From the NCBI GenBank assembly GCA_048571215.1, contig CP182352.1, positions 3,392,001 to 3,456,000 of the forward strand: 64,000 nucleotides of DNA. Reading direction: 5' to 3'. The stretch comes from Halarcobacter sp. (lineage in GTDB: Bacteria; Campylobacterota; Campylobacteria; Campylobacterales; Arcobacteraceae). The first letter of the stretch is position 1. Every line of letters begins with the position of its first letter. This document shows, piece after piece, positions 267 to 29,389 of this stretch. Both the position numbers and the translations under genes were made by a program. Below the pieces are notes generated by a model that was given only the letters and a program-made list of their open reading frames with translations, ran no database searches and was not told the DNA's origin.

Positions 267-1529
267 TTAATCTTTTATAAATAAAAATAGAGCTTTTGAT
301 TTGATGATAAACATCTTTTTAGTATCTTTTAAAAATAAATCAAATAAGTAATATACAAAAATATATGTTATCAAACTAGCATATGCAGCACCTGATATTC
401 CAAATTTTTTTATAAATATAAAATTTAATCCTATGTTTATAATAACACCTATTAGATTTCTATAAAGCTCAAGATTTGTTTTATTTTCTATTACTAACCA
501 TTTACTACTAACTAGTCCCATATATACAAAAACTGTTGAAAATATATGTATAACTAAAATTTGTGAAGAGGATAAAAAATTTTCACCATAAAGAGATACT
601 ATAATAAAATCAGACAAAAAATAAACACTTCCAATAAGTAAATATGCACAAAAAATCAAAAAAACTAAAAGCTGTTGTATCTTTTTATAATATAAAGATA
701 TAGATTTATCTTTTGATTTTATAATCAAAGGGAAAAAAGAGGAGCAAACCAAACCTCCTATTATAAACCAAATCTCACTTAATCTAACAGCAGCAGAGTA
801 ATAACCACTTTGAGCAACATCTAAAATCTCTTTTATCATAACTTGATCAATTTTTGCATATATAGTTGTAAGAACTCCTGCAAAAATCAGAGGATAGGAG
901 TGTTTTAGTAAACTCTTTATTAAAGAATTATCAACTTTCCAAGAAAAAACACTAAACTTATTTTGAAAATAAAAAAACAATAATCCTAAAGCTACGATAA
1001 CACTTTCTATTAGTATTACCCAAGCAAAATAGATTAGAGGATAACTATAAACTATCAGATAAATTTTAAGTGATGAAGAAACAAGAAGAGCAATAAGTTT
1101 TGAAAAAACTACATATTTACTTAAAACTTTACTTTGAAAATAAAAATCTATTACATTGAAACTATGAAAAATAAAAGAGAATGAGATAACTATAAGAAGT
1201 AAATTTATAGGATATTCATTATCAATTAGATTAATATATATAAAAATAAAAAATATAACAACTATAGAGCTTAGAAATTTCAATACAAAAGCAGTACCCA
1301 AAAGTTCATTGACTCTTTTTTGATTTTTTACTAGTTCTTTTATAACAATAGAATCAAGTCCTAATGTTGTAAAAACAACTACTATAGAGATAATACTTTC
1401 TACAAAACTAAACTTTCCAAAATCATTTGGACCTAAATATCTTGCCATCCAAGAAAAAACAAAAACCCATAAAATCATTCGAACTATTTTTTCAAAAACA
1501 AGATAAGTGGTATTTTTAATATATTCCAA
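267..1529 (-). CDS. wzx: Wzx-type polysaccharide flippase (MOP superfamily)
   Basis: 420 aa, highly hydrophobic; ARYLGPxxFG, IDQVMI, GYYSAAVRLSE and FGISGAAYAS motifs. Confidence 0.85.
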   Translation of the reverse strand: MEYIKNTTYLVFEKIVRMILWVFVFSWMARYLGPNDFGKFSFVESIISIVVVFTTLGLDSIVIKELVKNQKRVNELLGTAFVLKFLSSIVVIFFIFIYINLIDNEYPINLLLIVISFSFIFHSFNVIDFYFQSKVLSKYVVFSKLIALLVSSSLKIYLIVYSYPLIYFAWVILIESVIVALGLLFFYFQNKFSVFSWKVDNSLIKSLLKHSYPLIFAGVLTTIYAKIDQVMIKEILDVAQSGYYSAAVRLSEIWFIIGGLVCSSFFPLIIKSKDKSISLYYKKIQQLLVFLIFCAYLLIGSVYFLSDFIIVSLYGENFLSSSQILVIHIFSTVFVYMGLVSSKWLVIENKTNLELYRNLIGVIINIGLNFIFIKKFGISGAAYASLITYIFVYYLFDLFLKDTKKMFIIKSKALFLFIKD

Positions 1530-1531
1530 AA

Positions 1532-2143
1532 CTAATATACCCCTTTTTTCTGAAAAAGAATTAGAAAAGTTTTAAAAATGATTTTTATATCATTTAAAAG
1601 AGATTTATTATTTATATATTTTATATCTAATGCTATTCTTTGTTTTAAATCTAAATGATTTCTTCCACTAACTTGCCAAAGACCTGTAAGACCAGGTTTT
1701 ACTGAGCATAATTGTTTATATTCATTTTCAAAATGACATATCTCCTCTTCTAAGAATGGTCTAGGTCCTACAAAGGTCATATCTCCTTTAATAATATTAA
1801 AAAACTGAGGAAGTTCATCAAGACTTGTTTTTCTAAGAAAGAAGCCTAATTTACCCATAACTCTAGGATCATTTTTTAATTTACATGTTTTAGCGTACTC
1901 TTCTTTTAGATTTGGATTATTCTTAAGAATATTTGCCAATTCTTTTTCTGCATTTTTAGTCATAGTTCTAAACTTATATATTGTAAAAAGTTTTTTATCT
2001 TTGCCTACTCTTTTTTGTTTAAATATAATCTTCCCCTCTTTAAAAAAAGATTTGATTAATAAAACAATTACTAATATAAAAGGAGATAGAATTATTAAAA
2101 TTAATATTGATAGAATAATCTCTAAAAATCTTTTAAAGTACAT
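1532..2143 (-). CDS. Bacterial sugar transferase (undecaprenyl-phosphate phosphoglycosyl transferase)
   Basis: YKFRTM, DPRV, FLRKTSLDELPQF, GDMTFVGPRP and KPGLTGLWQVSGRN motifs. Confidence 0.9.
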   Translation of the reverse strand: MYFKRFLEIILSILILIILSPFILVIVLLIKSFFKEGKIIFKQKRVGKDKKLFTIYKFRTMTKNAEKELANILKNNPNLKEEYAKTCKLKNDPRVMGKLGFFLRKTSLDELPQFFNIIKGDMTFVGPRPFLEEEICHFENEYKQLCSVKPGLTGLWQVSGRNHLDLKQRIALDIKYINNKSLLNDIKIIFKTFLILFQKKGVY

Positions 2144-3264
2144 TTTTCTGTTCTTTTTTTAAATTCATTATATTTGTTAAAAACAAACTCTTTTATCTCT
2201 TTTTCAAATCTTTCTTTTGAAAACTGTAAGGTGTGTTTTCTTATTTTTGAAGGGATAAAACTGCTTATGTTTTTTTCAAATTTTTCAATTGCATTTAAAA
2301 TACTTTTTGTATTTTGTTCCTGAAAATATACACCTGTTACACCATCTATAACGGTTTCTCTTGTACCACCTTGATTTAGACAAATTACAGGTGTCCCACA
2401 AGCTTGCGCTTCAACTGGCAATATTCCAAAATCTTCAATTGCTGCATATACAAAGGCTTTTGCTTTTTGTAGCATTTTTATTAATACTTCATCTTCTTGA
2501 AAGCCTAATATCTTCATATTTGAACTAGCTTTTGCTTTTATTTTCAAAAGATCTGGACCATCGCCTATCACATACAAGATTTTATTTGTTTTAGAAAAAG
2601 CTTCAACTATCAAATCTATTTTTTTATATGAAACCATCCTTCCAGCAGTGATATAAAAATCTTCTTTATTTTCATCTAATTGAAATTTATTTATATCAAC
2701 AGGGGGATAGATAACTATTGAATCTCTATTATAAATTTTTTTTACTCTATTTGCCACAAAATTAGAGTTTGCAATAAAGTAATCCACTCTATTTATAGTT
2801 TCCAAATCCCAAATCTTAATTTTCTTTAAAATATATTGGACCAATCTTCCTTTAATACCTTTTTTTAGATTATTATCTTCTAAATATTGTTCAGATAAAT
2901 CCCAAGCATATCTCATAGGTGTATGTATATAACAAATATGAAGTTGATTATGATTTGTGATAACACCTTTCGCTACTGCATGTGAACTAGATAAGACTAA
3001 ATCATATTTATTTATATCTAACTGCTCTATAGCAAAGGGATAAAAAGGTAATAAATATCTATAATATTTTTTGGCTAAAGGAAAGTATTGTAAAAAAGAG
3101 GTTTTTGTTTTTTTATTATTTAAAATATCTTTTCTATCATCTTCTTTGAAGTAATCAAATAGAGTATAAATATCAGCATGTGTAAAAATATTATTAAAAC
3201 TTTTTACACACTTTTCAGCCCCAGCTGATGTGATAAACCAATCATGTACAAATACAATTTTCAT
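2122..3264 (-). CDS. GT4 glycosyltransferase (WbaZ-like)
   Basis: Likely start MKIVFVHDW at 3264 with AGGA upstream; HTPMRYAWD and EDFGILPVEAQACGTPVI motifs. Confidence 0.88.
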   Translation of the reverse strand: MKIVFVHDWFITSAGAEKCVKSFNNIFTHADIYTLFDYFKEDDRKDILNNKKTKTSFLQYFPLAKKYYRYLLPFYPFAIEQLDINKYDLVLSSSHAVAKGVITNHNQLHICYIHTPMRYAWDLSEQYLEDNNLKKGIKGRLVQYILKKIKIWDLETINRVDYFIANSNFVANRVKKIYNRDSIVIYPPVDINKFQLDENKEDFYITAGRMVSYKKIDLIVEAFSKTNKILYVIGDGPDLLKIKAKASSNMKILGFQEDEVLIKMLQKAKAFVYAAIEDFGILPVEAQACGTPVICLNQGGTRETVIDGVTGVYFQEQNTKSILNAIEKFEKNISSFIPSKIRKHTLQFSKERFEKEIKEFVFNKYNEFKKRTEKCTLKDF

Positions 3265-3458
3265 AAACTTCCTATAGATATTATAAATAACATTATAATA
3301 TATCATATGTTGAGTAAAATTATGGTTTTAGTGTGTAGCTTAGTGTAATCTCTTTTCATAATTTAAGATTTTTTATTGAAATTTATTATGTTATGTTGTT
3401 AGTTAGAAATTTTAAAATTGAAAAGTTTTTTAAGATGGCACTGACCCCCTAAATTCAG

Positions 3459-3612
3459 TTCCAAAGCTAATAATAACAAACTATTGTTATTATTTTAACG
3501 CTTTTCACATAAATTATCTCTTTAATTATATTTTATCTAAGTTCTTCTCAAAAGTGGAGATTCATTCACTGGGTGTTACTGTATTAATTATGTAAACTGT
3601 CCCCGGAATTTT
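3459..3612. repeat. ~154-bp cassette-junction repeat, copy 1
   Basis: Near-identical to 4656-4809; contains hairpin ataataacaa-acta-ttgttattat and ends in aactgtccccggaatttt. Confidence 0.9.
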
Positions 3613-3704
3613 TTATTTTATTTGAAATTTAATTGTGCCCGTCCCCTTTTCTCAGCTGGAACGAGAGAACTTGATTATGTTATTGTTATCACCTGACGCT
3701 TATT

Positions 3705-4352
3705 TTATTTTTGTTCTGATAAATCTCTTATTACTGACTTTAATGTACTTTGAGTTGCTATCGTTTTCTCATTTTTTAACGCTCTTTTCAAAATAGTTAG
3801 AACCTTTTGTTTATTTTTATTATCTACTAGAAAATATAAAAGATTAGCAGTTGCGGATCTTACTTGATACTCATCACACTCAAGAAAAGAAATAAAATCA
3901 TTAAAATATACTTTCTTTTTAAATCTGAGTAATGAATATAAGATTCTTAATTTTTCAGTATTTGTTGTATTTTTTTTCTTAAGTTTTTTTAGTAACAATG
4001 GTAAATACTTTTTTGCTTTTAAATTACCTATAGATTCATAAACGTATGCACGTACAAGGGTGTCCTCATCTTCTAATAAGTGTAATATATATTTTAAATA
4101 AGCTTTATTTTTGCTAGCACTAACAAGTTCAATAATAGAAATTTTAGTTAAATCATCTCCTTTTCTTAAAGATTCTTTTATTAATCTTTCTATGTTAAAT
4201 GACATTAGGGAAGTTATAGCATCAATACTATCTGCTCTTATTAGTATTTCATTACTACTTGTAAACTTTATTAATTTATCACGTAACTCCAATAGTTTAA
4301 TTAAGGTTTTTTCTATTTCTAATAATTTATTATTCAATTTTTTATTTTTCAA
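3705..4352 (-). CDS. HEAT-repeat protein, putative immunity protein of the orphan toxin
   Basis: LLEDEDTLVRAYVYESIGNL and FLECDEYQVRSATANLL HEAT-like repeats; directly downstream of the orphan toxin tip; TTG start with AGGA RBS. Confidence 0.6.
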   Translation of the reverse strand: MKNKKLNNKLLEIEKTLIKLLELRDKLIKFTSSNEILIRADSIDAITSLMSFNIERLIKESLRKGDDLTKISIIELVSASKNKAYLKYILHLLEDEDTLVRAYVYESIGNLKAKKYLPLLLKKLKKKNTTNTEKLRILYSLLRFKKKVYFNDFISFLECDEYQVRSATANLLYFLVDNKNKQKVLTILKRALKNEKTIATQSTLKSVIRDLSEQK

Positions 4353-4370
4353 AATCTTTTTCCTACAAAA

Positions 4371-4676
4371 TTATTTTTTTGCGCTACTATGTCTGTCTTG
4401 TAAAGCCTTTTGATGTTTTTTTATTCTTTGTTTCATCTTTTTAGATACATTAGGGTCTCTATACATCCTATCTAATTCTTCTTTACTATATCCTTCTAAC
4501 TCAGTGTCCCTAATATTTTGTTTACCACCTTTAGCATTATAAACATTAGGTAATTCACAATAAGAACCATTATTGGGCTTATAAACATTTTTATTCCATA
4601 AATAAGCAGAAAGAACTGCCCAGCCTTCAGTGGTGCTAAAGCACATCACTTTTAATTCCAAAGCTAATAATAACAA
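4371..4676 (-). pseudogene. Orphan RHS C-terminal toxin tip (resembles Ntox34-type helical toxin)
   Basis: GGKQNIRDTELEGYSKEELDRMYRDP...KQRIKKHQKALQDRHSS. The nominal TTG start falls inside the repeat, so the tip probably has no real start. Confidence 0.6.
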
Positions 4677-4809
4677 ACTATTGTTATTATCTTAACGCTT
4701 TTCACATAAATTATCTCTTTGATTATATTTTATTTAAAAAGTGGAGATTCATTCTCAGGGGTGTTATTGGTGTTACTGTATTAATTATGTAAACTGTCCC
4801 CGGAATTTT
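4656..4809. repeat. ~154-bp cassette-junction repeat, copy 2
   Basis: Direct repeat of 3459-3612; 4705-4728 is identical to RHS-core DNA at 5798-5821. Confidence 0.9.
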
Positions 4810-4817
4810 AATTTTAG

Positions 4818-5201
4818 CTATCCTTCAGAACTAATTATGAAATTTGCATCTTCATAAAGATTATATTCATCAAAATCAATATAGTTATGAGCTGGAGAAA
4901 ATGATATAGATAAAAAATATTCAATAATTTCTCTCCATAAATTAGCATCCAAGTTTATTGATACATTTAAACCCTCAATTTTATTCAAAATATTAGCATT
5001 ATTATTTGAACATAATAAGATATTCAATTCTTTAGTATCAATGTAATTAAGATTACTTAATTGAATTAAATTACCATTTTGTTCACCCAAAAAATATAAA
5101 TCTTTTATTAGTTTAATATAATCGTAAGGTTTTCCTCTCCATATAAAACTGGGAGGAGGTTCGCCATACGCATATTCATCAGTAAGTTCTATTGTTATCA
5201 T
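4818..5201 (-). CDS. Putative cognate immunity protein of the RHS toxin
   Basis: 127-aa acidic protein; its ATG directly abuts the RHS stop (TAAATG). Confidence 0.7.
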   Translation of the reverse strand: MITIELTDEYAYGEPPPSFIWRGKPYDYIKLIKDLYFLGEQNGNLIQLSNLNYIDTKELNILLCSNNNANILNKIEGLNVSINLDANLWREIIEYFLSISFSPAHNYIDFDEYNLYEDANFIISSEG

Positions 5202-8200
5202 TTATATCCATCCCATATTTAAATTATTCAAATAAATATTTTCCCATTTACTTTTACCATTATTCCCTCCTGGTTTATTATCCCAATGCCCTTTAGGATG
5301 ATATTTATCAGGTAAATGTGGTCTCCATTCTCCATTAGTATCATCATAGAGACTTTTTTCTCCTCTATTTTTAGGTTTGTTTTTTGAAGGATTACCTTCT
5401 TTACATTCACCATTAACTGGTGGCTTTGGCCAAGTAGAAGTGTCTGATAAATCAATACCTTCTCCTGACTCTATATCGCCAATTTGTATTATAGGATTAA
5501 TTGGCATTTTAGGAATAGTTATAGGTCTAGGTATAATCATTGGCCTAGTAATAACAAATGCATTTAACCCTTCAGGATCAATCCCATTAATAGGATCACC
5601 CAACACATACCCATAAAGATTAGTATCCCCACCACTAAAATCAATAGGATCCTTAGCAGTCCATTTCCCTGTGTAACTATCATAATCCCTATACCCAAAT
5701 CTAGTTAAACCAGTATCTGAATCATAAAGCCCACCTGCAAACCCAAATGGTACTTTAAAATCTGGATTTGAATCTTCTAGTATATTACCAAAGCTATCAT
5801 AAATTATCTCTTTGATTATATCATGATTAGAGTCAGATACTGCCCTTAAGCTTCCAACTTGGTCATAGTGTAAATAATATTTATTTGAACCTTGTGTCAT
5901 AGATATAGGCATTCTACTATTTGCGTATTCAAATCTTTGGACTAAATTATCATTTCCATCATATATAGCTAAAAGAGTTGTTAAATCAGCCCATAGGTAT
6001 TTTTCTACAACAACTCCATTTACAAGTTTTGCAACTCTTTGATTATTAGCATTATGTTTATAAGTAATAGTTTTAGAAGGTGTTTTTACCTCTTTTAACT
6101 CTCCCAAAGTAGAATAACTATAAGTAGTAGTTCCATTTGGCGTTACCTTTGAAGATAAATATCCATCTTCATCATAGGTATAAGTGTTATCTCCATATAC
6201 TTCTACTTGGTCATCTAAGGTATAGTATCCTGATGTTGTAACACCATTTACAGTTGCAGAGGTTCTATTTTCATTGTTATCATATGAATAAGTTTCTACT
6301 ATATTTCCATCTTTTTTTACTTCTATTAATCTTGCATTATCATCATAGGTATAGTCATATGTTTTTGTAGTATTGTTTACAGTTTCTTGTTTTTGTAAGA
6401 TTAAAGCTGAATTATCTTTTGAAATAATTTCATAACTAAAGCTATTATCTGCTACTTTTGTTAACTCTCCATAGTTATCATAACTTAGATTTTGAACAAA
6501 ATTTCCATCTGTAATTTTTGTAACATAGGCATTTTCTGCATCTCTTGTAAGAGTATAATCACCACTTGTTAAAACTAAACCATCATTATCATATGTATAG
6601 TTTTCAGTAATACCTGCATAAGTAAACGATATTGGTAAGAAATCATCATTATAGGTATAACTTAATCCTTCATTTAATACCCCATTATATGTTAATAAGC
6701 TTAATAAGTTTCCATCATAACCATATTCGATTTTTTCACTTCCTTTTGTAATAGTTCCTATTTGATTATTAAAAATATACTCATAGTTTATTGTAGCCTC
6801 AGGAGTTGTTGTAGAATCTAATCTATCATTTACATAGTTATTTACTATTGTTTTTCCACTTGGTCTTGTTATTTGGGTTAGTTTTCTATTTCCATTATAT
6901 TCATATAAAGTTTGTTTATTAAGCGCAGATTTCATAGAGGTTCTTTGACCTATATTATCATATGTAAAGTCGTGATTCGTAGAAATAGGAGTTATTAATC
7001 TAGTCATATTACCACTCACATCATAACTATATTCTTCTATTGCACCATTTGGATGAGTAACCCTTGTAACTCTATCTAATATGTCATATTGATATGAAGT
7101 TGTTTTTCCCCTTTCATCAGTGATAGTATCAATATTACCTCTACTATTATAAGTAAAACTTGTGGTTCTGGTACCAGTTGTTTGAGATATAACTCTTCCT
7201 TTATTATCATATGTATAAGTTGTAGGAGTTAAAGTACCTGAGGTTGAGCTTGTTGTAAGTCTTGTATTTATATCATACTCTTCCTTTGCAATTCTTCCTT
7301 CAGGAGTTGTAATAGTATTTATACCATTTTCATAATCATTTTTTATAGTAGTTGCTTTACCATTTGTTGTGATTGTTTGGGTTTTTGATGTTGTTAATCC
7401 ATTTTCATTAGTTTCATAAACTGCGCTATTACTTGTTACTTTACTTAAACTACTTGGAAGTATAGTTGTTACTGAATCAAGTACTCTTTTTTTTGTTTCT
7501 GGATCAGTTTTGTACTTACTTTGAATATTTATATTGTTCTTGATAGCATTTACTAATCTATTATCAGAAGATACTGTAATAGAATTACTATCTCCATTAG
7601 GGAAAACTGTTTCTTGTTTTAAAGAATCATTTTCTAATTTAATTTCTCTATAAAATTTAATATCTCCCTCAGGTTTACCTAAAGCATATTCAATAAATGC
7701 ATCACTTATATTCTTTTGTAAAAACCACTCTTCATTATTTACATCAATTTCCTTAATTATACGACCATTATCATCATATAAATTAAAAGAACTTGCTCCT
7801 GATGGCTCTGTATGTTTTGTAAGTAAAGAGTCATTATTATATTCAAATTGATGACTTGTATTATCTTCATATGTAACAGATAATAAATTTCCATTTGAAT
7901 CTACATTCAAATATGTTTTTTGACCATTTGGTGCAGTTATAATAGTTGGAATACCATTTTCATTTCTTCCTATTAAAATTTCATTATCAAACTGATTCTT
8001 AACACTAATCAACCTTTTATTTTCATCATGGGTAAAGCTTTTTAGAACCTTTTTTGAAAATAAGTCTATAGTTTCGATATGGTTTCCAGCTAAATTAAAC
8101 AACTCTGCTGTATTATTTGAGTTTATATTAATTATTCCATCTTCTATTTCATTATCTGTGAAGAAATTAGAGGTATAAATCCTATATAATTTATCATTTG

Positions 8201-12690: not shown

Positions 12691-13920
12691 ATGAGAATAA
12701 AAAATCATATAAAAGTTCTTAAGGGTAAGAATCGTTTTGCAGTTTATAATCTAAAAAATGGAACCTGCGAACCTGCAACTAAAATAGAGATTGAATTGCT
12801 TAGATTAATCTCTATAAGGAAAACCCTTACCCCTAAGAAAGCTAATATCAAAAATTTATGGTTTCACTTATCTTCTATGAGAAAAAAAGGTTGGTTAGAA
12901 GCTGGAAAAGCTCAAGTTTATCTTCTTGATTTAGAGATTAAAAAAATAGATAATTCCAATAATAAAACTTTTGAAAGAGTTTGGATTGAACCCACTTTAT
13001 CTTGTAACTTCTCTTGTAATCACTGTTATGCAATGTCCAATAATAAAGTAAATCGTGATAATGAATTAGATGAAAATCAATGGATAAACATCTTACAAAA
13101 AGTTTTAGTTTATGATATAAAGTATATTACCTTTATTGGTGGAGAACCAATGATTAGAAAAGATTTAATAAAATCTTTAGTGATATATATAAAAGAAAAT
13201 TCTCCTAATATTAAAGTTGGCATTTTTTCTAATTTATACAACATAATAGATGCTGATATTCAATTTATAATTGAGCATAATTTAGGTGTATCTACTTCTT
13301 TATATGGAATAGAAGCTAATGAACATGATAAAATGACTAACAAAGTTGGTTCCTGGGTTCGAACAGTAGAAGTGATTAAAAAACTGACAAAAAATAATAT
13401 AAATGTATTTGTTGGTTACTTTAAAAACAATAAAGAAATCACAAACTTAACTATCAAGTCATTTCTCAACAGTTTAGGAGTTACATCTTTTGATATCCAA
13501 AATCATCATAATGTAGGAAGAGCTATACAAAAAGCGCCTATAAAAGTTTCAAAAGACAATATATTGCCTTTAAAAATGTCATTTAATCCTAACACTATTT
13601 CAAAGTATAGTAGTGAACATAATTGTTTTTCTAATCATATATCAATATCTTCAAATGGAGATGTAATGGGTTGTATTATGATGAGAAAGCCTGAATATGG
13701 AAACTTACTTAGTGATTCACTTGACAAAATATTAAGTAGTAAAAATTATATTCAACTTTCAAAATTAACAAAAGATAAAATAGAAGGTTGCTCTGAATGC
13801 GAATTTAGATATGGATGTTTTGACTGTAGAGCAGGTGCAATGAGTGACTCTAATAATCTTTTTAAAAAACCAGATTGTGGCTATGATCCAAGATTAGTAT
13901 TAAGTTTTGAAAATGACTAA
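12691..13920 (+). CDS. Radical SAM/SPASM-domain peptide maturase
   Basis: CNFSCNHC (CxxxCxxC), IGGEP, SPASM cysteines C...GDVMGC...CSECEFRYGCFDCR...C; ~90-aa N-terminal extension (possible RRE). Confidence 0.92.
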   Translation: MRIKNHIKVLKGKNRFAVYNLKNGTCEPATKIEIELLRLISIRKTLTPKKANIKNLWFHLSSMRKKGWLEAGKAQVYLLDLEIKKIDNSNNKTFERVWIEPTLSCNFSCNHCYAMSNNKVNRDNELDENQWINILQKVLVYDIKYITFIGGEPMIRKDLIKSLVIYIKENSPNIKVGIFSNLYNIIDADIQFIIEHNLGVSTSLYGIEANEHDKMTNKVGSWVRTVEVIKKLTKNNINVFVGYFKNNKEITNLTIKSFLNSLGVTSFDIQNHHNVGRAIQKAPIKVSKDNILPLKMSFNPNTISKYSSEHNCFSNHISISSNGDVMGCIMMRKPEYGNLLSDSLDKILSSKNYIQLSKLTKDKIEGCSECEFRYGCFDCRAGAMSDSNNLFKKPDCGYDPRLVLSFEND

Positions 13921-14584
13921 TGAAACTTTTTTAAATATAATGTTTGAAGTTGAAACAAAAGGTTTCTGTGATTTAGGGGTTATTAAAAATTTTGATTTAT
14001 TAAAATTTGCATATAAAATTGGCAAACCAATTCCAATCTTACCAGATGAACCTAAATTAGGTTTAGTAGGTGCAAGAAGTCTTTCATCAAATCTTTCTAG
14101 TAATGAATACGCAACAATTTATAAAGAAAATATACCTTTTCATACTGATGCAGCCTATTATAAAATTCCCCCAAAGTATTTAATACTTAGATTAAAGAAA
14201 ACATCTTTGTCTAATCGCAATACGACTGTAAAAAAATTGTTTACAAATCTCTCTCAAGAGATAGTTGATATTTTAAGCAAATCTCTTTGGAAAGTTAGAA
14301 GTCCAAATGGTAGATATTTTATAGGAAAAATTATTGAAAGAAGAAATAATGATTTTTTTATTAGATATGATTCAAATTCAATGGTACCTTATTTCAAAAA
14401 AAATCAATATTCAAGGGAAGTATTAGAAGGAGTATTAGATAAGATACAAACTTTTGAGATAACTTGGGAGCCTGAAAAAATTGTTATATTAAATAATTGG
14501 AAAGTACTTCATGGTAACAGCAAAGTTATAAATGATATTGACTCTTCGAATAGAATTTTAGAAAGAGTTTTGGTTGAAGTTTGA
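13913..14584 (+). CDS. TauD/TfdA-family Fe(II)/2-oxoglutarate dioxygenase
   Basis: PFHTDAAYY (HxD), LNNWKVLHG (distal His), RILER; ATG at 13913 overlaps the rSAM stop (ATGACTAA). Confidence 0.8.
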   Translation: MTNETFLNIMFEVETKGFCDLGVIKNFDLLKFAYKIGKPIPILPDEPKLGLVGARSLSSNLSSNEYATIYKENIPFHTDAAYYKIPPKYLILRLKKTSLSNRNTTVKKLFTNLSQEIVDILSKSLWKVRSPNGRYFIGKIIERRNNDFFIRYDSNSMVPYFKKNQYSREVLEGVLDKIQTFEITWEPEKIVILNNWKVLHGNSKVINDIDSSNRILERVLVEV

Positions 14585-21043: not shown

Positions 21044-21712
21044 ATGCTAGAAGATTATATTAAATTTCCACAACGCAAAATAAAAAAGAGCTATCGTTCT
21101 GTCATTGGGCATTTCCCTAGTATAAAAAATGGTAAATCAATAATCTATGAGTCACTATTGGAAAGAGCCTTATATCTATCTTTGGAATTTGATGATAGTG
21201 TTTTTGCATATTATGAACAGCCTCAAATTGAAATTGATTTTAAAAATAGACATTCAACATATAGCTTAGATTGCTATATCCGAAGAGTAAAAGAATCAGG
21301 GGTTAAAGATACGATTATTGAAGTAAAATATTCAAATGAACTTGAAAAAAATAAAGAATACTTTGAAGAAAAATTTGAAGATACGAAAGTGTTTGCGAAA
21401 GAACATGATTTAGAATTTGATGTATTTACTGAACTTTCATATAGCAAAGAATATATAGAAAATTTAGACTTTTTATATAGGTATAAAGAAAATCCAATAG
21501 AACATAAATATGAAAAAGAGATATTGGATGTTCTTAAAGACACTACAAAATTAGCTGCATTTGATTTAGTGCAAAAACTTACATCTAATCCAAAAGAATA
21601 TGCAATAGTTTCTAATAACATTTGGTCATTAGTTTCAACTGGTAAATTAAAGACAGATTTATTTGCTAATGAGTTTACTATGAATTCTTTAGTGGAGTTA
21701 AACAATGGCTAA
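21044..21712 (+). CDS. tnsA: TnsA-like transposase endonuclease subunit
   Basis: YESLLER, LEFDDSV..YYEQP, D...IEVKY PD-(D/E)xK core; stop overlaps the tnsB start. Confidence 0.9.
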   Translation: MLEDYIKFPQRKIKKSYRSVIGHFPSIKNGKSIIYESLLERALYLSLEFDDSVFAYYEQPQIEIDFKNRHSTYSLDCYIRRVKESGVKDTIIEVKYSNELEKNKEYFEEKFEDTKVFAKEHDLEFDVFTELSYSKEYIENLDFLYRYKENPIEHKYEKEILDVLKDTTKLAAFDLVQKLTSNPKEYAIVSNNIWSLVSTGKLKTDLFANEFTMNSLVELNNG

Positions 21713-23591
21713 TGTAATTTCCTTTGATATTGATAGTAAAATTTTTTACCAAGATGTAGAATATATTATAAAAGGATATCCCTCTTTAGAGGAAGTACTC
21801 CTCAAAAAATTAAATAAACCATATAATGAAAAAATTGTAAAAGTCAATGATTTAATTAGTGACCCTAAAAATATAAAAAAGAGAACAAAAGAATTAGTTG
21901 ATACTGAACAAAAAGAATTAGATAAAGCAACTGAACGATTTAAGATTATTGAACCTTTATTAGACATTGAAAATAGAACAGCAAAAGATGTTCAAAAAGT
22001 TGCAAAGAAAAATAAAAAAGGTATTGCCACAATATATAGATGGCTTAATACTTATGAGCAATACAAAACTGTAAGTTCACTAGCTTCTAGAAGAGAATTT
22101 TGTGGAGGTAAAGGAAAAAGTAGATTAGACGAATCTGTTGATACAATAATCAATAGTGTAATAGAAGAGATGTATTTACATAAACAACAATATCCCCTGC
22201 AAGATATCTATGAAGAGATTGTTTATAAATGCCAGAATATAGAACTAAAAGCACCCACAAAAAATACGATAAGAAATAGAATAAATGCTTTACATCCAAA
22301 AATTATTGCAAAATATAGAAATGGAATAAGAGTAAATGAAACTAGAGGAATGCCAAATAAATTTCCAGATGTGAAAATGCCTTTAGACATTATTCAAATT
22401 GATCATACTAAAGTTGATGTTATTTTGGTTGATGAAGAAAATAGAGAACCAATTGGAAGACCTTTTATTACTGTTGCAATTGATGTATATAGTAGGATGA
22501 TGTATGGCTTCTATATCTCTTTAGAAGCCCCTAGTTATTTTAGTGTAGGGCAATGTTTATTAAATGCAATTTTACCAAAGGATGAATTATTAGCAAAATA
22601 TAAAGTTGAGGGAGAATACCCTGTTTATGGATTGCCTAGAAAGGTACATATGGACAACGGTAAGGACTTTACTTCAATTAGTTTACGTAATTTTTGTCAA
22701 GAATTTAGAATAGAAGATCGCTATCGTCCAGTTGCTAGACCTGAGTTTGGTGGTGCAGTAGAAAGAGTTTTAGGCACATATATGAAAAAGATGCATTCCT
22801 TGCCAGGTACAACTAGATCTAATATATTTAAAAGAGGAAGTTACGATTCTGAGATAGAAGCTGCTATGACTATTGATGAACTTGAAGAATGGTATTTGGA
22901 TTTTGTAATAAATGTTTATCATAAAACTGAACATAGCTCAATATTTATGACACCTGAAGAGAAATTTTATCAAGGTTTATATGGCGTCGGAAAAGAAAAG
23001 TCTATCCCGTTTTTGCCTACAGTTCCAACAAATACTTTAAAGCTTAGAATGGCATTACTTCCTCAAATAAAACGTAGTGTTCAAAAAAATGGTATCACTA
23101 TTGATTATATTACTTATTTTTCAGAATCTTTGAGAAAATGGATTATTCCATCTCAATATAAAAAATTAAAACCTAATTTAAAAAATGAAGTTATTTGTAG
23201 ACGTGACCCAAGGGATATTAGTAAAATATATGTATATGATGAAGATATTAAAGATTATATCACTGTTCCATATGCAGATATTAGAAAACCTAAAATGAAC
23301 TTATCTGAGCTTAGAGAGGCAATTTCGGAAGCAAAAAAGCAAATAACAGGAAGAGAACTTGAACCTCATGATATTTTTGAAGCAAAAGAGAGACTTCGAC
23401 AAAGGGTTGAATCTGCAAAAAGAGAAAAAAAATCTGTAAGACGTAAAAGAAGTTCTAAAAAGCATCAAGAAAAAATTTTAAATATGGAAAAAGAGAGAAT
23501 TGATTATAAAGAGACCAAACCTACACCTTTAAAAATATCCCAAGCACAGGATGAAGATGAGGAAGGTTATGATATATATCCTATAGGTTGA
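21705..23591 (+). CDS. tnsB: TnsB/TniA DDE transposase
   Basis: HTH ATIYRW; QIDHT, HMDNGKDF and GAVER catalytic motifs; DPRDISKIYV (Mu transposase C-terminal). Confidence 0.93.
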   Translation: MANVISFDIDSKIFYQDVEYIIKGYPSLEEVLLKKLNKPYNEKIVKVNDLISDPKNIKKRTKELVDTEQKELDKATERFKIIEPLLDIENRTAKDVQKVAKKNKKGIATIYRWLNTYEQYKTVSSLASRREFCGGKGKSRLDESVDTIINSVIEEMYLHKQQYPLQDIYEEIVYKCQNIELKAPTKNTIRNRINALHPKIIAKYRNGIRVNETRGMPNKFPDVKMPLDIIQIDHTKVDVILVDEENREPIGRPFITVAIDVYSRMMYGFYISLEAPSYFSVGQCLLNAILPKDELLAKYKVEGEYPVYGLPRKVHMDNGKDFTSISLRNFCQEFRIEDRYRPVARPEFGGAVERVLGTYMKKMHSLPGTTRSNIFKRGSYDSEIEAAMTIDELEEWYLDFVINVYHKTEHSSIFMTPEEKFYQGLYGVGKEKSIPFLPTVPTNTLKLRMALLPQIKRSVQKNGITIDYITYFSESLRKWIIPSQYKKLKPNLKNEVICRRDPRDISKIYVYDEDIKDYITVPYADIRKPKMNLSELREAISEAKKQITGRELEPHDIFEAKERLRQRVESAKREKKSVRRKRSSKKHQEKILNMEKERIDYKETKPTPLKISQAQDEDEEGYDIYPIG

Positions 23592-23596
23592 AATAG

Positions 23597-24466
23597 ATGA
23601 ATGAAAGAAATTTGACAAAAGAAGCTTTAGCGTATTTAGAAAAAAGTGATGAAGAAAGAATTTTATATTGTAAAAAAGATCATTGGATAGGATATGGTGC
23701 AGCTGTAAAATTAATTGAGATTTTAGAAGATAAGTTCTTTGATCCTCCTCAAATGAGACATGAAGGCTTATTGATTTATGGCGACTCAAACAATGGTAAA
23801 ACTGCTATCTTAAGAAAAATGTATGATTTACATAAAGTCAAATTAGAGCCAATTGAAAAAGGCGATAACATAACTTATGATATTCCTATAATATATTTTC
23901 AAGCTCCCACAGTTCCCGATGAAAGTAGATTGTATAGTCTTATATTAGAAGAACTTTGTGCTCCTTGTAAGCCAACAGAGAAATTATCAATAAAAGTAAA
24001 ACTTGCAAAGCATTATTTAAATAAATTAGGAACAAAGATGATTTTAATAGATGAGATTCATAGTTCGTTAACTGGTAATCTAAATAAACAAAGAACTTTT
24101 ATAGATGATTTAAAGCAGCTAAGCAATAGTTTGTCATTAACCATAGTTTTAGCAGGGACAAGAGCTGCTCACTCTGCTTTATCAATTGGAGAAGAAACAG
24201 CAACAAGGTTTCCTTCTATTGAACTTCCTAGATGGAACAATGATAGAAAGTTTAGGTCTTTTATTGCTACCTATGAACGATGTTTACCTCTAAAAGAGGC
24301 TTCAAATATGGCAGATAATCCAGAGATAATAAATGCACTTTTTCATCAATCTGAAGGATTAATTGGAAAAACAGTGAATTTATTGAAAAAAGCAGCAGTA
24401 AAAGCAATCAAATCAAAAAGAGAGTATATTATAGTCTCTGATATAGAGTATTTACCAAAGTTGTAA
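23597..24466 (+). CDS. tnsC: TnsC/TniB AAA+ ATPase
   Basis: WIGY, GDSNNGKT, LIDEIH and SEGLIG motifs. Confidence 0.92.
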   Translation: MNERNLTKEALAYLEKSDEERILYCKKDHWIGYGAAVKLIEILEDKFFDPPQMRHEGLLIYGDSNNGKTAILRKMYDLHKVKLEPIEKGDNITYDIPIIYFQAPTVPDESRLYSLILEELCAPCKPTEKLSIKVKLAKHYLNKLGTKMILIDEIHSSLTGNLNKQRTFIDDLKQLSNSLSLTIVLAGTRAAHSALSIGEETATRFPSIELPRWNNDRKFRSFIATYERCLPLKEASNMADNPEIINALFHQSEGLIGKTVNLLKKAAVKAIKSKREYIIVSDIEYLPKL

Positions 24467-24467
24467 T

Positions 24468-25640
24468 ATGAAAACTAAAAAAAGAAATAGAGATTGGGTT
24501 CAAGACTATTTCTTTTTGTTTATTTCCAAACCTTTAAAAGATGAACTTTTAAGTTCTTGGTTAACCAGAGTTGCTTTTGAGCATCAACGAGATCTTTCAA
24601 GTTTTATATCACTTTTCATAAGACATCAAGGAAGCACAATAGCAAGAGCTGATATTGATTTTTTATATGATGAAAAACTATTTAAACAATTAGCTAGAAA
24701 AAGCCATTTATCTGATAAAGAAATATATCAAATGTCTTTACGTAGTGAAGAAGGACATCTTTTTATTTGTTCTGAAAATGGGTTATATCCACCTTTTCAA
24801 ATTAGAAAATTAACTGACAAAAGAACTCATCATGCTTTAATGTATTGTCCAAAGTGTTTAGCTGAGGAAAAAATTCCATATTTTAGGAAAAAATGGAGAT
24901 ACAACTTTTATAATGCTTGTCCAAAACATAAGATATTTTTAACAGACAGATGTTGGCGATGTTATACAAAAATTGAATTTCCAAAAATAAAACATCTAAA
25001 AGAACTTTGTTTTTGCTATAACTGTGAAAAAGATTTAAGAGAAACTATTACGATATCTATTCAATCAAATCATAAATATGGATTAAAAGCTATTGAGTGG
25101 TTTGAAAAAGGATTAAATAAAGGATATTTTATAATAAATAAACAAAAAGTTAAATCAGTTTTTATATTTGAAAGTTTTACAAAATTGAGATTTTTATTAG
25201 GTAAAAAACAAAAATTAGATTTAGAAGCCTTTCCTTTGATAGAAGAGTATAAAGATATTTGTAAAAAGCTAGAAAAATATAATTCTAAAAAAGCTTTATC
25301 TATATATAAAGAGTTCGTATTAACCTCAATGGTTTATTATCTATTTCAGAATTATCCTAATAATTTAATTGATTTCTCAAAACAAAACCATTTTACTCAT
25401 AGGGATTTTGTTCATGGTTTTAAAGATATTCCATTTTGGTATAAAGAACTAATAGATGAGATTATCCCCATGCAAAATAAAATAGGTAGAGTAATTAGTG
25501 AAAGTGAAGTTTTAGGAGCTATTAAGTATTTAAAAAATCAAAAGAAAGTTGTAAATCAATTAAATGTGGCAGAAGTTGTAGGTTGCCATTTTACAATACA
25601 TAAGGGTTTTATAAAAATCTACAAAAGAATAATCAAATAA
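24468..25640 (+). CDS. tniQ: TniQ/TnsD-family target selector
   Basis: PLKDELLSSWLTR; CPKC...W...CPKH...CWRC...CYNC zinc motifs; C-terminal HTH-like extension. Confidence 0.9.
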   Translation: MKTKKRNRDWVQDYFFLFISKPLKDELLSSWLTRVAFEHQRDLSSFISLFIRHQGSTIARADIDFLYDEKLFKQLARKSHLSDKEIYQMSLRSEEGHLFICSENGLYPPFQIRKLTDKRTHHALMYCPKCLAEEKIPYFRKKWRYNFYNACPKHKIFLTDRCWRCYTKIEFPKIKHLKELCFCYNCEKDLRETITISIQSNHKYGLKAIEWFEKGLNKGYFIINKQKVKSVFIFESFTKLRFLLGKKQKLDLEAFPLIEEYKDICKKLEKYNSKKALSIYKEFVLTSMVYYLFQNYPNNLIDFSKQNHFTHRDFVHGFKDIPFWYKELIDEIIPMQNKIGRVISESEVLGAIKYLKNQKKVVNQLNVAEVVGCHFTIHKGFIKIYKRIIK

Positions 25641-25642
25641 TC

Positions 25643-27340
25643 TTAAATTTTTCCTAATAATCCACTATACCACTTAGCTAATTGCATATCATTCAAACTT
25701 TCATTTCTCTCATGATTCTTTTTAGCAAATTTAGGATTAGTTTTTTTATATTTTTTGGAAATGTCAGGAATAGAAATATCATCTTTACAATATAAATTGA
25801 TGAAAAGATTAAATATATCTTTTGTTATAAATGAATCAGAAATTATTACCCAACAAGATGCAGATGAAGATGTATAGTTTTCTAATTCTAATAATCCTAC
25901 ATGAGAATTTTTATATTTAAAAGTAGCAGTTAAATATTGTCTAGCTCTTTTTTTCATTTTGCATTTAGAGTTAATCTTTTTTTCACCATTTTTTTCAACT
26001 ATAAATTCAGGTAAATGAGTTACTTCATTTAAAACAAAATTTTCAATAGGTTTTTGTTTCTGTAAAAAATCCATGTATTGCTTAAATACTATAAAATTAT
26101 CTATTTCCTTTAGAGGAGTTTTTTCACCTTTTTCAAATTCACTAGAGATTATCACTCTTCTGGTTGTTTTATCTCCTTTTGATGAGGACTCTGTAAGACT
26201 TTGATCAACTTTATCTCCATTCTCTTGCTCTTGATATATTTTTAGTAAATCCTCAATAATATCTTTAGTCTTTGTTTCATGTTCTATTTCAATATTTTGT
26301 AAACTTCCACAACTTTTTTTTCTGTCTTTTTGATGTTGAGTTCTGGTGTGTTTTTTATTTGCATGTTTTACTTTTAATATTTCAGTAGTCTCTTCAGGAA
26401 TTTCTCTATCAACTTTAGAAAGATTTTCTAAATCATTTATAGTTGTAATAACTTTATTTTGCTCAATAATTTTTGTAAATTTGTCAAATCCTATATCTGA
26501 GTAATCATTTAAAATTTCATGAATATAATAGTATTGTTCGTTTGTATCTTTATTTGTCAATAGAGTTGCTTTTACATCTATTTTAAATTTTTCTTTCACA
26601 GGAAAATTTATTTTTAGATGAATATCTCCAGGTTCTTTATCTATATCCTCTTGTCTCATATATGCAAGATAGTTGTGTATATACTTGCCTATATTATCAA
26701 ATTCATTATGAGCAGTTTCTTGACAAGCAAATCTATGTATAAAAGCAGCATCTTCATCTGTACGTGGAGTTGGTAATACAATTTTTGCATCTGCTCTATT
26801 ATCATCACACATAATATATAAACTTTCAACATTACACTCTAAAGAGGCTTCTCTCATTTCTGAAAATCTAAAGTAATAATATATACCTATCGCATAATGG
26901 GGGATTATAATTTTGATACCAGATTGCTCTATTAAATAACAGTTAATATATTTTGCAGTATTTAAAAATGTATAATTCCAACCAAGTAAAGTACCAATAG
27001 TCTTATAATCAAGTATTTCATGTAGTTTCTTTGATGAAGAGTTGTCTATTAAAGAGGTATCAATGAAAAAACTTTCTTCAAAATTTTCTTTATCTGGATA
27101 ATTTTCTGTTTTATCACTATTTTTAAAAGATTTACAAAGAGGAAAATGTGTAAATAAAAGTTCAGGAGAGATAAGTTTTGAAAACACATTACCAGTAGAC
27201 ATATTTTTAATTACGACTTCATAATGACTATTCCCAAACTTATCTTCATCAAGGATTAATTTTAAAGGAAATAAGAGTTTAAAAGTATCATTTGGATTAT
27301 CAGACATAAAATCAGGAATAATACTTTTACCCTTTGACAT
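25643..27340 (-). CDS. TnsE-like target selector (convergent with tnsABC-tniQ)
   Basis: 565 aa. Segments DNFIVFKQYMDFL / EVTHLP / RQYLTATFKYKNSHVGLLELE / NH...AKW are colinear with the Tn7 TnsE C-terminal domain as I recall it; IIIPHYAIGIYYY resembles the TnsE IPQLELARSLF region. Confidence 0.65.
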   Translation of the reverse strand: MSKGKSIIPDFMSDNPNDTFKLLFPLKLILDEDKFGNSHYEVVIKNMSTGNVFSKLISPELLFTHFPLCKSFKNSDKTENYPDKENFEESFFIDTSLIDNSSSKKLHEILDYKTIGTLLGWNYTFLNTAKYINCYLIEQSGIKIIIPHYAIGIYYYFRFSEMREASLECNVESLYIMCDDNRADAKIVLPTPRTDEDAAFIHRFACQETAHNEFDNIGKYIHNYLAYMRQEDIDKEPGDIHLKINFPVKEKFKIDVKATLLTNKDTNEQYYYIHEILNDYSDIGFDKFTKIIEQNKVITTINDLENLSKVDREIPEETTEILKVKHANKKHTRTQHQKDRKKSCGSLQNIEIEHETKTKDIIEDLLKIYQEQENGDKVDQSLTESSSKGDKTTRRVIISSEFEKGEKTPLKEIDNFIVFKQYMDFLQKQKPIENFVLNEVTHLPEFIVEKNGEKKINSKCKMKKRARQYLTATFKYKNSHVGLLELENYTSSSASCWVIISDSFITKDIFNLFINLYCKDDISIPDISKKYKKTNPKFAKKNHERNESLNDMQLAKWYSGLLGKI

Positions 27341-27356
27341 GTTAGTTTAAACTCCC

Positions 27357-27424
27357 ATTATCAAATTTTATTTGACATATTATCACTTTTTATTTCCTAT
27401 TATCATTTTTTTTTGCTTTTGACA
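27357..27424 (-). repeat. Inner transposon end (TGT plus three putative TnsB sites)
   Basis: Minus strand TGTCAAAAG-CAAAAAAAAATGATAAT-AGG-AAATAAAAAGTGATAAT-ATGTC-AAATAAAATTTGATAAT. Confidence 0.85.
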
Positions 27425-27448
27425 AATGATACTTTTACCTTTAGACAT
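27425..27448 (-). pseudogene. 8-codon remnant of a second tnsE-like gene
   Basis: ATGTCTAAAGGTAAAAGTATCATT (MSKGKSII): same peptide as the intact gene start but with synonymous changes; interrupted by the inner end. Confidence 0.8.
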
Positions 27449-27464
27449 ATTAAATTAAACTTCC

Positions 27465-27532
27465 ATTATCAAAGTTTATTTTACATATTATCACTTTTTA
27501 TTTCCTATTATCATTTTTTATTTTTTCTGACA
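27465..27532 (-). repeat. Outer transposon end (TGT plus three putative TnsB sites), overlapping the mnmG 3' end
   Basis: Minus strand TGTCAGAAA-AAATAAAAAATGATAAT-AGG-AAATAAAAAGTGATAAT-ATGTA-AAATAAACTTTGATAAT. Confidence 0.85.
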
Positions 27533-29389
27533 CCTCATACTAATATACATATGAATAATATCAATAGCAGCTGGAGTTACTCCTGAAATTTCACTTGCAT
27601 TGAAAAGTGTTGGTGGATTAAACTTTTCTAGTTTTTCAACTACTTCATTTGATAATCCTGGAATATCTTTAAAGTTAAAGTTTTCCGGGATTTTCAATTG
27701 AAGCATTTTTTTCATTTTTTCTATTTGTTTTTTTTGTTTTGCTACATATCTATAATATTTTGCTTCGATAATGATTTGCTCTTTTAGATAGTCTTCTGTA
27801 TTGGCTAAGCTTGGAACTAACTTATCAAATTTTTCTTTATCAACGGTATTTCTTCCCACTATATCAATAAGAAGTGCTCTGTCTTTGATTTTGTCTTCAC
27901 CTAAACTTTCAAGTAGTTCTAGGTTCTCTTTTTTTGAGGTAAACCATTCGTTTGCCATAAATTCAACTGCATTTTGTAGTACCTCTTTTTTGTGTTCTAC
28001 TTTTTGTAGTTGTTCTTGTGAAACTAGTCCAAGCTCATATCCATATTTTGATAGTCTCATATCTGCACTCTCTTCTCTTAGAAGAAGTCTATATTCAGCA
28101 CGGCTTGTAAACATTCTATATGGTTCATTTGTTCCTTTTGTAACTAAATCATCAATCAAAACTCCAATATATGCTTCATCTCTTCTTAGGATAAAAGGCT
28201 CTTTCCCATCAATTGCCAGACAAGCATTTATCCCTGCCATAAGCCCTTGTGATGCTGCCTCCTCATATCCTGTTGTTGCATTGATTTGTCCCGCATGGTA
28301 AAGGTTAGATATCTTTTTTGTTTCAAGGGTATGCTTCAATTCAGTTGGATCAACATAATCATATTCTATAGCATATCCATATCTTATGATTTTTGCATTT
28401 TCTAAACCTTGTATTGAGTGTATCATCTCTTTTTGTACATCAATTGGTAAAGAGGTACTTAGTCCATTTATATAGTACTCTGTTTTCATTGCTGTTTGTG
28501 GTTCTAAAAACAGTTGGTGTCTTTCTCTCTCGCTAAATCTACTTATTTTGTCTTCAATACTTGGACAATATCTAGGACCTCTACCTTCTATTTGACCTGT
28601 AAACATTGGAGCTCTATGGAAGTTACTTGAGATTTTATCATGGGTGTTTAGGTTTGTATATGTTATAAAACATGGATGTTGTGTTGGCTTGAAGTTTGAT
28701 TTATCTGTTCTAAATGAAAAAGGTGTTGGCTCTTCATCCCCTCCATGGGCATCCATAACATCAAAGTTAATAGAGCTTGCATCTATTCTTGCAGGTGTTC
28801 CTGTTTTTAGTCTTCCTACTTTTAGTCCTAACTCTTTTAACTGTATAGATAAGGTTGAAGATGGTAGTTCCCAAGCTCTTCCTGCATCATATTTGTTTTC
28901 CCCTATATGGATAAGTCCTTTCATAAAAGTACCTGTAGTTATGATAACTTTTTTACTTTCAAATACTTCACCAAGTTTTGTTTTTACTCCATAAACTTCA
29001 TTTTCATTTTTAACTAAAAGTGAAGATACTTCATCTTGATAAACTTCTAAGTTAGGAGTATTATGACAAACTTTTCTCATATACTCTCTATATTTATCCA
29101 TATCGATTTGTGCACGACTTCCTTGTACTGCTGCACCTTTTGAGGCATTTAGAACTCTAAATTGTATACCTGTTGCATCAGTACAAAGTCCCATCTCTCC
29201 ACCTAGTGCATCAAGCTCTCTTACTAGGTGACCTTTTGCAAGACCACCAATAGCAGGATTACAAGAAGCAGCTCCTATTTGTTCAACAAGCATAGTAATA
29301 AGTAGGGTTTTTTTACCCATTCTTGCACTTGCTAAACTAGCTTCTATCCCAGCGTGTCCACCGCCGACGACTATTACATCATATTTCAT
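27518..29389 (-). CDS. mnmG: tRNA uridine-5-carboxymethylaminomethyl modification enzyme MnmG/GidA
   Basis: [32 protein letters not shown] and [14 protein letters not shown] motifs. Confidence 0.98.

Follow-up and report, generated by a model that had tools for sequence, protein, structure and literature searches.

The window analysed here is a 64,000-nucleotide (nt) stretch of a Halarcobacter sp. assembly (GCA_048571215.1, contig CP182352.1, positions 3,392,001 to 3,456,000; G000:C1:3392001-3456000, with "genome" coordinates below following the contig numbering), and carries a transposon in which tnsA, tnsB, tnsC and tniQ run towards a convergent gene for a 565-amino-acid (aa) protein situated at the mnmG-proximal end of the element. 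From its gene set, its ends and its relatives in other genomes, this is probably a cut-and-paste Tn7-like transposon with a Tn6022-type layout lacking TnsF, which inserts in the 3' end of mnmG and has two target selectors, TniQ and a TnsE homologue. The features are, in window coordinates:

21044-21712, + strand: tnsA, endonuclease subunit (222 aa; PF08722, E 5e-11; 23% identity to Tn6022 TnsA)
21705-23591, + strand: tnsB, DDE transposase (628 aa; rve and Mu-transpos_C)
23597-24466, + strand: tnsC, TniB-type AAA+ adaptor (289 aa; TniB PF05621, E 1.6e-50)
24468-25640, + strand: tniQ, putative mnmG selector (390 aa; PF06527 over residues 21-158)
25643-27340, - strand: tnsE homologue (565 aa; convergent with tniQ, 2-bp gap)
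27341-27424, - strand: tight end of the inner element, the youngest insertion (terminal TGT, three putative TnsB sites with a TGATAAT core, tnsE ribosome-binding site (RBS); kept in relatives)
27425-27429, + strand: 5-bp target duplication of the inner element, AATGA (partner copy at genome 3388633-3388637)
27425-27532, - strand: stub of an older related element (its own end and first 8 tnsE codons; the remaining tnsE at genome 3388637-3388452)
27518-29389, - strand: mnmG (gidA), attachment gene (GIDA, E 5.5e-164; single copy in the genome)
27533-27537, + strand: 5-bp duplication CCTCA at the mnmG site (the same 5 bp precede far ends at genome 3376869 and 3371345)

A preliminary description of this DNA had listed five genes with their orientations, a gap of 2 bp, three repeated end sites, a GGGAG motif, the ATG at 27340 and the TniB type of TnsC; all of this was confirmed, and the end sites share a TGATAAT core. 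In blastp-type comparisons, TnsB is 33% identical to Tn6022 TnsB and 25% to Tn7 TnsB, and TnsC is 35% identical to its Tn6022 counterpart, with no match to Tn7 TnsC at E<0.01. The TniQ C-terminus forms a helical extension, and the fold search with this protein matched TniQ/TnsD structures. Close homologues are labelled Aliarcobacter, Halarcobacter, Malaciobacter and Arcobacter, which points to a host in the Arcobacteraceae. The hallmarks of a Tn7-like element are present together: TnsA, TnsB, TnsC and a TniQ-domain protein; ends of the TGT...ACA form that carry repeated TnsB-type sites, flanked by a target duplication of 5 bp; and a fixed, oriented attachment site, the mnmG 3' end. Read from that site, the order is attachment gene, tight end, tnsE, cargo, the convergent tniQ-tnsC-tnsB-tnsA block, cargo and spaced end. 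The inner element runs past the left edge of the window to a far end at genome 3388638, 3,363 bp before window base 1; it is thus 30,787 bp long and is flanked by a perfect AATGA duplication.

Profile searches and structure modelling identify the 565-aa protein as a TnsE homologue. When an alignment of 74 family sequences was compared with PDB sequences at E<=10, the only two matches were both TnsE C-terminal domains (CTDs; E 1.5 and 2.3), and TnsE_C was matched by 26 of the 74 members at E<=0.1 (best 3e-9). Against a four-sequence set, the family profile matched Tn6022 Orf4 (E 4e-9, from position 243 onwards) and Tn7 TnsE (E 2e-5), with reversed decoys at E>=1. With the AlphaFold model of the protein (predicted local distance difference test, pLDDT, 88.8), Foldseek ranks 1-7 were all TnsE CTDs (probability 0.97-1.00), and a VIA structure comparison of residues 413-565 with 5d16 gave Z 12.0 and a root-mean-square deviation of 3.4 over 142 aligned residues, the next row reaching Z 6.1. 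A structure comparison with TnsE had been set beforehand as a possible refutation of the TnsE-like assignment; C-terminal similarity was found, and the assignment stands. N542-H543 aligns with the DNA-contacting Asn-His pair of TaTnsE, and H543 is kept in 72 of the 74 rows. Passages of Krishnan 2025 (PMC12153342) describe the contact of this pair with DNA, a CTD making no sequence-specific contacts, and an interaction of the TnsE N-terminal domain with the beta-clamp; the N-terminal domain is predicted as two PriB/SSB-like folds in a passage of Faure 2023 (PMC10293859). The N-terminal part of our model is confident and strand-rich, and whole-chain structure searches covered just residues 409-565.

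A complex model of TnsC with TnsE residues 1-400 scored 0.80, against 0.28 for the best control, a mark that was reached by 116 of 157 solved pairs and by 2 of 215 mismatched pairs; the runs had no less than 70% of their contacts in common, and the partner pLDDT was at least 77. Since the PDB searches returned isolated TnsE CTDs only, a memorised TnsE-TnsC complex seems unlikely. The model supports binding but does not show it. In the model, TnsE would dock on TnsC through a helix of its N-terminal domain, at about residues 208-230. How TnsE recruits TnsC is called unknown in passages of a 2024 review (Hsieh and Peters, PMC11406308), and the model offers residues to mutate for this open mechanistic question, which would be a first handle on TnsC recruitment.

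The preliminary description had inferred a fixed-site element and left the site unnamed; the fixed site exists, and it is the mnmG 3' end. In the window, the last four mnmG codons and the stop are supplied by the end of the older element. We examined 28 loci and located the end in 26. In 22 of them the distance from the His codon of the mnmG D(I/V)(I/L)H motif to the end is 17-18 nt, and in 23 loci mnmG terminates at a stop 12-39 nt into the end. Empty mnmG alleles have short, variable tails at the insertion point, so the change of tail by insertion is probably neutral; it is only the variable MnmG tail that is altered. Contigs of two runs from another study hold a nearly identical element, with 116 differences in 4,926 nt, that joins mnmG directly at 19 nt, without the 108-bp stub.

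The tnsE protein was matched in 27 of 183 other genomes of the family, with tnsE or its stub directly behind mnmG in 25 of these 27; the stubs of G036 and G144, both on short contigs, are not beside mnmG. Close protein homologues include ones labelled Aliarcobacter butzleri. Phylum-wide, the tnsE profile is matched by 39 of 401 genomes, and 14 of the 30 loci listed lie behind mnmG, in five Campylobacterota families. A search of genome contigs turned up L001, a locus of 60% identity labelled Bacilli that has a piece of the mnmG 3' end upstream, besides a single weak match. Conservation beside related tns operons, also named beforehand as a point on which the TnsE-like assignment could fall, was observed: a convergent tniQ is present in 17 of the 19 relatives with near full-length tnsE (G041 and G082 are without one in the DNA examined). 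The tniQ-tnsE gap in these 17 ranges from about 25 bp to 15.9 kb and is below 1 kb in three, which rules out the 2-bp gap as a design feature; the start of tnsA lies 1.6-24 kb from the far end in the matched elements. Across the relatives, internal tns genes come out as a family trait and the 2-bp gap as a peculiarity of the window copy. Scanning 19 elements for the 5-bp duplication gave 10 exact cases, one with 4/5 bases and four with <=2 bases, and the remaining four had no far end within the DNA examined. The same site is re-used in tandem in G000, G085 and G013. Read from these junctions, insertion is shown to be oriented and site-specific, with a 5-bp duplication, a replaced stop and re-use of the site, one insertion being displaced at +108.

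We did not find mnmG/gidA as a Tn7-type site in the searched literature, outside which lay subscription papers and several supplements. There is no mnmG in the passages of Benler 2021 (PMC8649781) or in the passages and Table 1 of the Hsieh and Peters review (PMC11406308), and no mnmG/gidA in the main text of Faure 2023 (PMC10293859), whose listed supplement matches fall inside protein sequences. Relative to the literature searched, the mnmG 3' end appears to be a new attachment site. It lies inside coding sequence, where the transposon end restores the stop, and its use in five families makes it a hotspot for defence and other cargo.

Some relatives are reduced or unusual at their ends. Six loci (L024, L025, L027, L028, L029 and L030) retain just about 30-55 tnsE codons behind mnmG, with the end recognisable in five of the six, as if the end had been kept for the mnmG stop that it holds while the remaining element decayed. 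The far ends of G011, G016, G130, G152, G041, G022, G013 and G068 contain an outward-reading ATG 36-40 nt inside, usually with an RBS-like sequence, and in G130 and G068 its frame runs on into the displaced mnmG tail. The second element of G439 has a degenerate end and was assigned no site.

All mnmG elements, together with one of unassigned site, form a single clade in the trees of TnsC (100/99) and TniQ (100/100; G007b, a 193-aa fragment, was left out, and the G469 locus contains no TniQ), and the stem of the TniQ mnmG clade is long (1.53). Three mnmG elements have a TniQ 51-57% identical to that of the window and a TnsC that drops to 41-44%; G151 and G012 show 56-57% identity in TniQ, 43-44% in TnsC and 25-28% in TnsE. 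These few, related cases suggest that TniQ carries the site specificity and that TnsE travels with the core. Other listed loci, Pfam-checked, lie behind argJ (G556), inside dprA (G509, G489, G537) or inside a comM-like gene (G365, G360, G007), and the upstream gene is unassigned in five of the 30; for G469, G159, G556 and G360, the site labels link tnsC and tnsE on different contigs by genome only. A tblastn search with Tn6022 TnsF gave no match at E<0.01 in 22 element sequences or in the genome, and relatives have no conserved open reading frame (ORF) after tniQ, which in the window abuts tnsE. Sister clades at argJ, dprA and comM and a TnsF-less TniQ series appear to be new, and the compact single-TniQ selector, of which sister versions are aimed at three further genes, lends itself to study of how TniQ specificity changes.

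The sister elements differ in how they meet their genes. Those at L122-L124 (G556, G393, G463) begin exactly at the argJ stop codon, and argJ was not found as an attachment site in the searched papers. In the dprA clade, L162 (G509:C1:290346-293147) has, in this order, truncated dprA, the end and tnsE, whose stop is overlapped by a dprA-family gene of full length, and in L125 (G469:C65) dprA likewise follows directly after tnsE; elements of this clade may carry a replacement for the gene that their insertion breaks. Among the elements at the comM-like gene (L126, L127, L133 and L165, from G007, G365, G360 and G308), TniQ is short, at 313-323 aa in G365, G360 and G308.

In Tn7, TnsAB carry out excision and joining, and TnsC links the selector to the transposase. 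For the mnmG element we propose that the 3' coding sequence of mnmG is recognised by one TniQ of 390 aa, which loads TnsC, and that TnsE would be a second, structure-directed selector for replicating or conjugating DNA, binding duplex DNA through its CTD. A weak hint of plasmid carriage comes from the Nitrosophilus plasmid pHRV44, where a distant element has a convergent TnsE-like gene (a match of high composition bias) and no duplication-bounded ends were found. The pHRV44 locus (L072, 9270-16098) also has two tandem tnsA-tnsB pairs before one tnsC-tniQ, and a tyrosine recombinase gene upstream.

Several results count against the proposed two-selector, mnmG-directed transposon. Taken alone, the 565-aa protein matched no Pfam or NCBIfam model and ESM Atlas returned nothing informative; the Foldseek E-values of its TnsE matches are just 0.02-0.11; hhalign to Tn7 TnsE gave a probability of 11%, confined to the CTD; and residues 1-400 had no structural match in whole-chain searches, which barely probed that part. 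The TnsC residues in predicted contact with TnsE are less conserved than TnsC as a whole (0.76 vs 0.85; 21 sequences). Four located ends lie elsewhere, at 20, 22, 50 and 65 nt past the His codon, and the genomes, being related, do not count as independent. We found no clean insertion of the mnmG clade away from its site, and no match to tnsE occurred among 72,556 plasmid records. Finally, an IS256 copy with an 8-bp duplication interrupts the inner far end 38 bp in, so the window copy may no longer move.

The arrangement of the tight end bears on how tnsE is expressed. The minus strand from 27424 starts TGTCA, with TGATAAT cores at 27405-27399, 27385-27379 and 27363-27357; GGGAG (27356-27352) directly follows the third core, and the tnsE ATG at 27340 lies 16 nt past that core. 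In most relatives the ATG is about 84 nt from the terminus, and GGGAG itself varies among them. In Tn7, TnsB represses tnsAB. It is conceivable, and we put it forward tentatively, that a promoter inside the end drives tnsE and is repressed by TnsB on the three sites, mirroring that control: the RBS abuts the third site, the ATG spacing is maintained, and promoter matches that reach 9 of 12 in the consensus overlap with the sites. These matches, however, are weak, and it is the AT-rich sites themselves that make them up (9 observed over a duplicated region vs 3.4 +/- 2.1 expected), and we rejected the promoter scan as evidence of TnsB repression; tnsE could instead be read from the host gene.

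That second possibility, which we consider rather doubtful, is that tnsE is read by run-on from mnmG, the insertion displacing a host hairpin or the downstream operon, with TnsB perhaps acting as a roadblock. The gene is co-directional with mnmG and directly behind it, no terminator was found in 27250-27750, and a hairpin of <=-7 kcal/mol follows the insertion point, within 84 nt, at 14 of 18 empty sites and at 1 of 25 occupied ones (6/24 empty and 1/26 occupied loci, in which the anchor motif was missed, were left out, and the genomes compared are related and so not independent). In the sister clades, too, tnsE is co-directional behind argJ, truncated dprA and truncated comM. The orientation may nevertheless be a mere by-product of TnsC polarity, and several empty-site hairpins fall in the coding sequence of the next gene. 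The TnsB-repression and run-on models are compatible with each other. A wider proposal, which we hold to be unlikely, is that the elements are an undescribed Campylobacterota radiation with two pathways each, whose lone TniQ came to be aimed anew at mnmG, argJ, dprA and comM and whose end-proximal tnsE is transcribed from the host attachment gene, so that arrival at the chromosomal site switches on a plasmid-seeking pathway; if true, the dprA and comM sites could tie this pathway to competence.

It is quite improbable that the TnsE homologue is instead the partner that TniQ needs at mnmG, in the role that TnsF has in Tn6022, and no plasmid selector. In its favour, no TnsF was found, every located copy is at or near mnmG, and the plasmid search gave no copy; but TniQ tracks the site and TnsE does not (G151, G012), related TnsEs occur also at argJ, dprA and comM, and the TnsE CTD is reported in passages of PMC12153342 to make no sequence-specific contacts.

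The window copy is the youngest insertion, landed inside an earlier copy already at the mnmG site. A direct repeat of 108 bp and 88% identity (27317-27424 and 27425-27532) spans the junction, and both copies read TGTCA, three sites, an RBS and codons for MSKGKSII. Position 27424, taken in the preliminary description for the outermost end, is ruled out as outer boundary by this older stub beyond it and by the matching AATGA duplication at the far end. The inner element entered codon 7-8 of the tnsE of its older relative, 108 bp inside that relative, and past 3388638 the older tnsE resumes in frame for about 60 codons (79% identity), adjoining a decayed tnsA. The older element's end (27532) falls in the last mnmG codons and is flanked by CCTCA. 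Because CCTCATGT is found 18 times on the + strand genome-wide, the assignments of 3376869 and 3371345 as far ends rest also on the end-like sequence behind them; the far end at 3371345 abuts a still older, divergent end at 3371339. The island comprises at least three insertions, and probably four. That the landing at +108 reflects displacement from an occupied site is a guess. Local duplication or assembly artefact, to which the adjacency and 88% identity of the 108-bp copies might point, is scarcely credible. It is refuted by the matching AATGA duplication, whose second copy flanks the far end at a distance of 30.8 kb; the older tnsE resumes there in frame at 79% identity, and contigs of two sequencing runs, possibly of the same source DNA, span the 27424/27425 junction with 0 differences. 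The IS256-family element at G000:C1:3388676-3390000 has many genome copies, and another terminal piece abuts the outer far end, at 3376701.

The rest of the window's left part is cargo:

1-21043, continuing 3.4 kb left of the window: inner-element cargo (methylase+HATPase, TIR/SEFIR-NACHT, radical SAM+TauD, RHS, flippase and glycosyltransferase genes)

The methylase is a cytosine methylase. The outer element carries QatABCD and SIR2-HerA, with type I restriction-modification genes further left, and repeated insertions stack into a cargo-rich defence island at mnmG. Beside the RHS gene, non-coding repeat blocks recur every ~1.1-1.2 kb (3454-5829), among small ORFs that are candidates for orphan tips or immunity genes. 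The cargo also has a pglB-like gene that is split, together with genes for a flippase, a sugar transferase and a glycosyltransferase (window 267-3306 and G000:C1:3390109-3392264); these look like captured host glycosylation genes. At 12691-14584, a radical SAM/SPASM-like gene is paired with a TauD-family dioxygenase.

Among known systems, the nearest comparison is with Tn6022/AbaR4, for which we used the pAB04-2 copy as reference and set aside the frameshifted CP035931.1 record. Passages of Correa 2024 (PMC11014353) describe for Tn6022 a distant TnsE placed at the opposite end from the other genes, TnsE-dependent transposition and internal (nested) insertions, and a passage of Faure 2023 (PMC10293859) places tnsE of the Tn6022 group on the opposite strand near an end. 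The mnmG element shares with Tn6022 its TnsA, TnsB, TniB-type TnsC (35% identity) and TniQ of ~370-390 aa, the opposite-strand, distant tnsE close to one end (starting 100 bp inside it in pAB04-2 and 84 bp in the window element), the 5-bp duplication and the nested insertions. In contrast to Tn6022, where TnsF/Orf3 lies downstream of tniQ, comM is broken and tnsA is 155 bp from its end, no TnsF was found in the mnmG element, the mnmG 3' end is re-terminated, and tnsA lies 1.6-24 kb from the end, behind cargo; the mnmG elements also form a separate clade in the TnsC and TniQ trees. With two defining features, TnsF and the comM site, missing, we rejected membership of the Tn6022 family.

Prototype Tn7 resembles the mnmG element in having two selectors, a conserved gene whose 3' coding end contains the site, tandem islands, the TnsE C-terminal fold and, according to passages of Hsieh and Peters (PMC11406308), a tightly spaced end facing the recognised gene; the same source calls TnsE almost universal among glmS- and comM-targeting elements. 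Unlike Tn7, the mnmG element lacks co-oriented tnsABCDE, a TnsD of ~500 aa and the glmS site, its TnsC has no blastp match to the long Tn7 TnsC, and it inserts inside coding sequence, whereas Tn7 is described in a passage of PMC11014353 as inserting downstream of glmS. Membership of the prototype Tn7 family was rejected on layout, TnsD and site.

Also close are uncharacterised loci in the Faure 2023 supplement (for example node4288, CP021995.1; PMC10293859), which in the parts listed have tnsA-tnsB-tnsC-tniQ and a convergent tnsE but no line for tnsF. Among the matches listed (15 of 387 'tnse' places), these TnsF-less loci come without a target gene, and they may include the mnmG clade. The preliminary description had presented the layout itself as the novelty, which does not hold, as the supplement locus and Tn6022, with its opposite-strand, end-proximal tnsE and TniB-type TnsC, have it too. 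The inverted layout is already published for Tn6022, and what appears to be new is the attachment site at mnmG, together with the series of TnsF-less TniQs and the nesting within the island.

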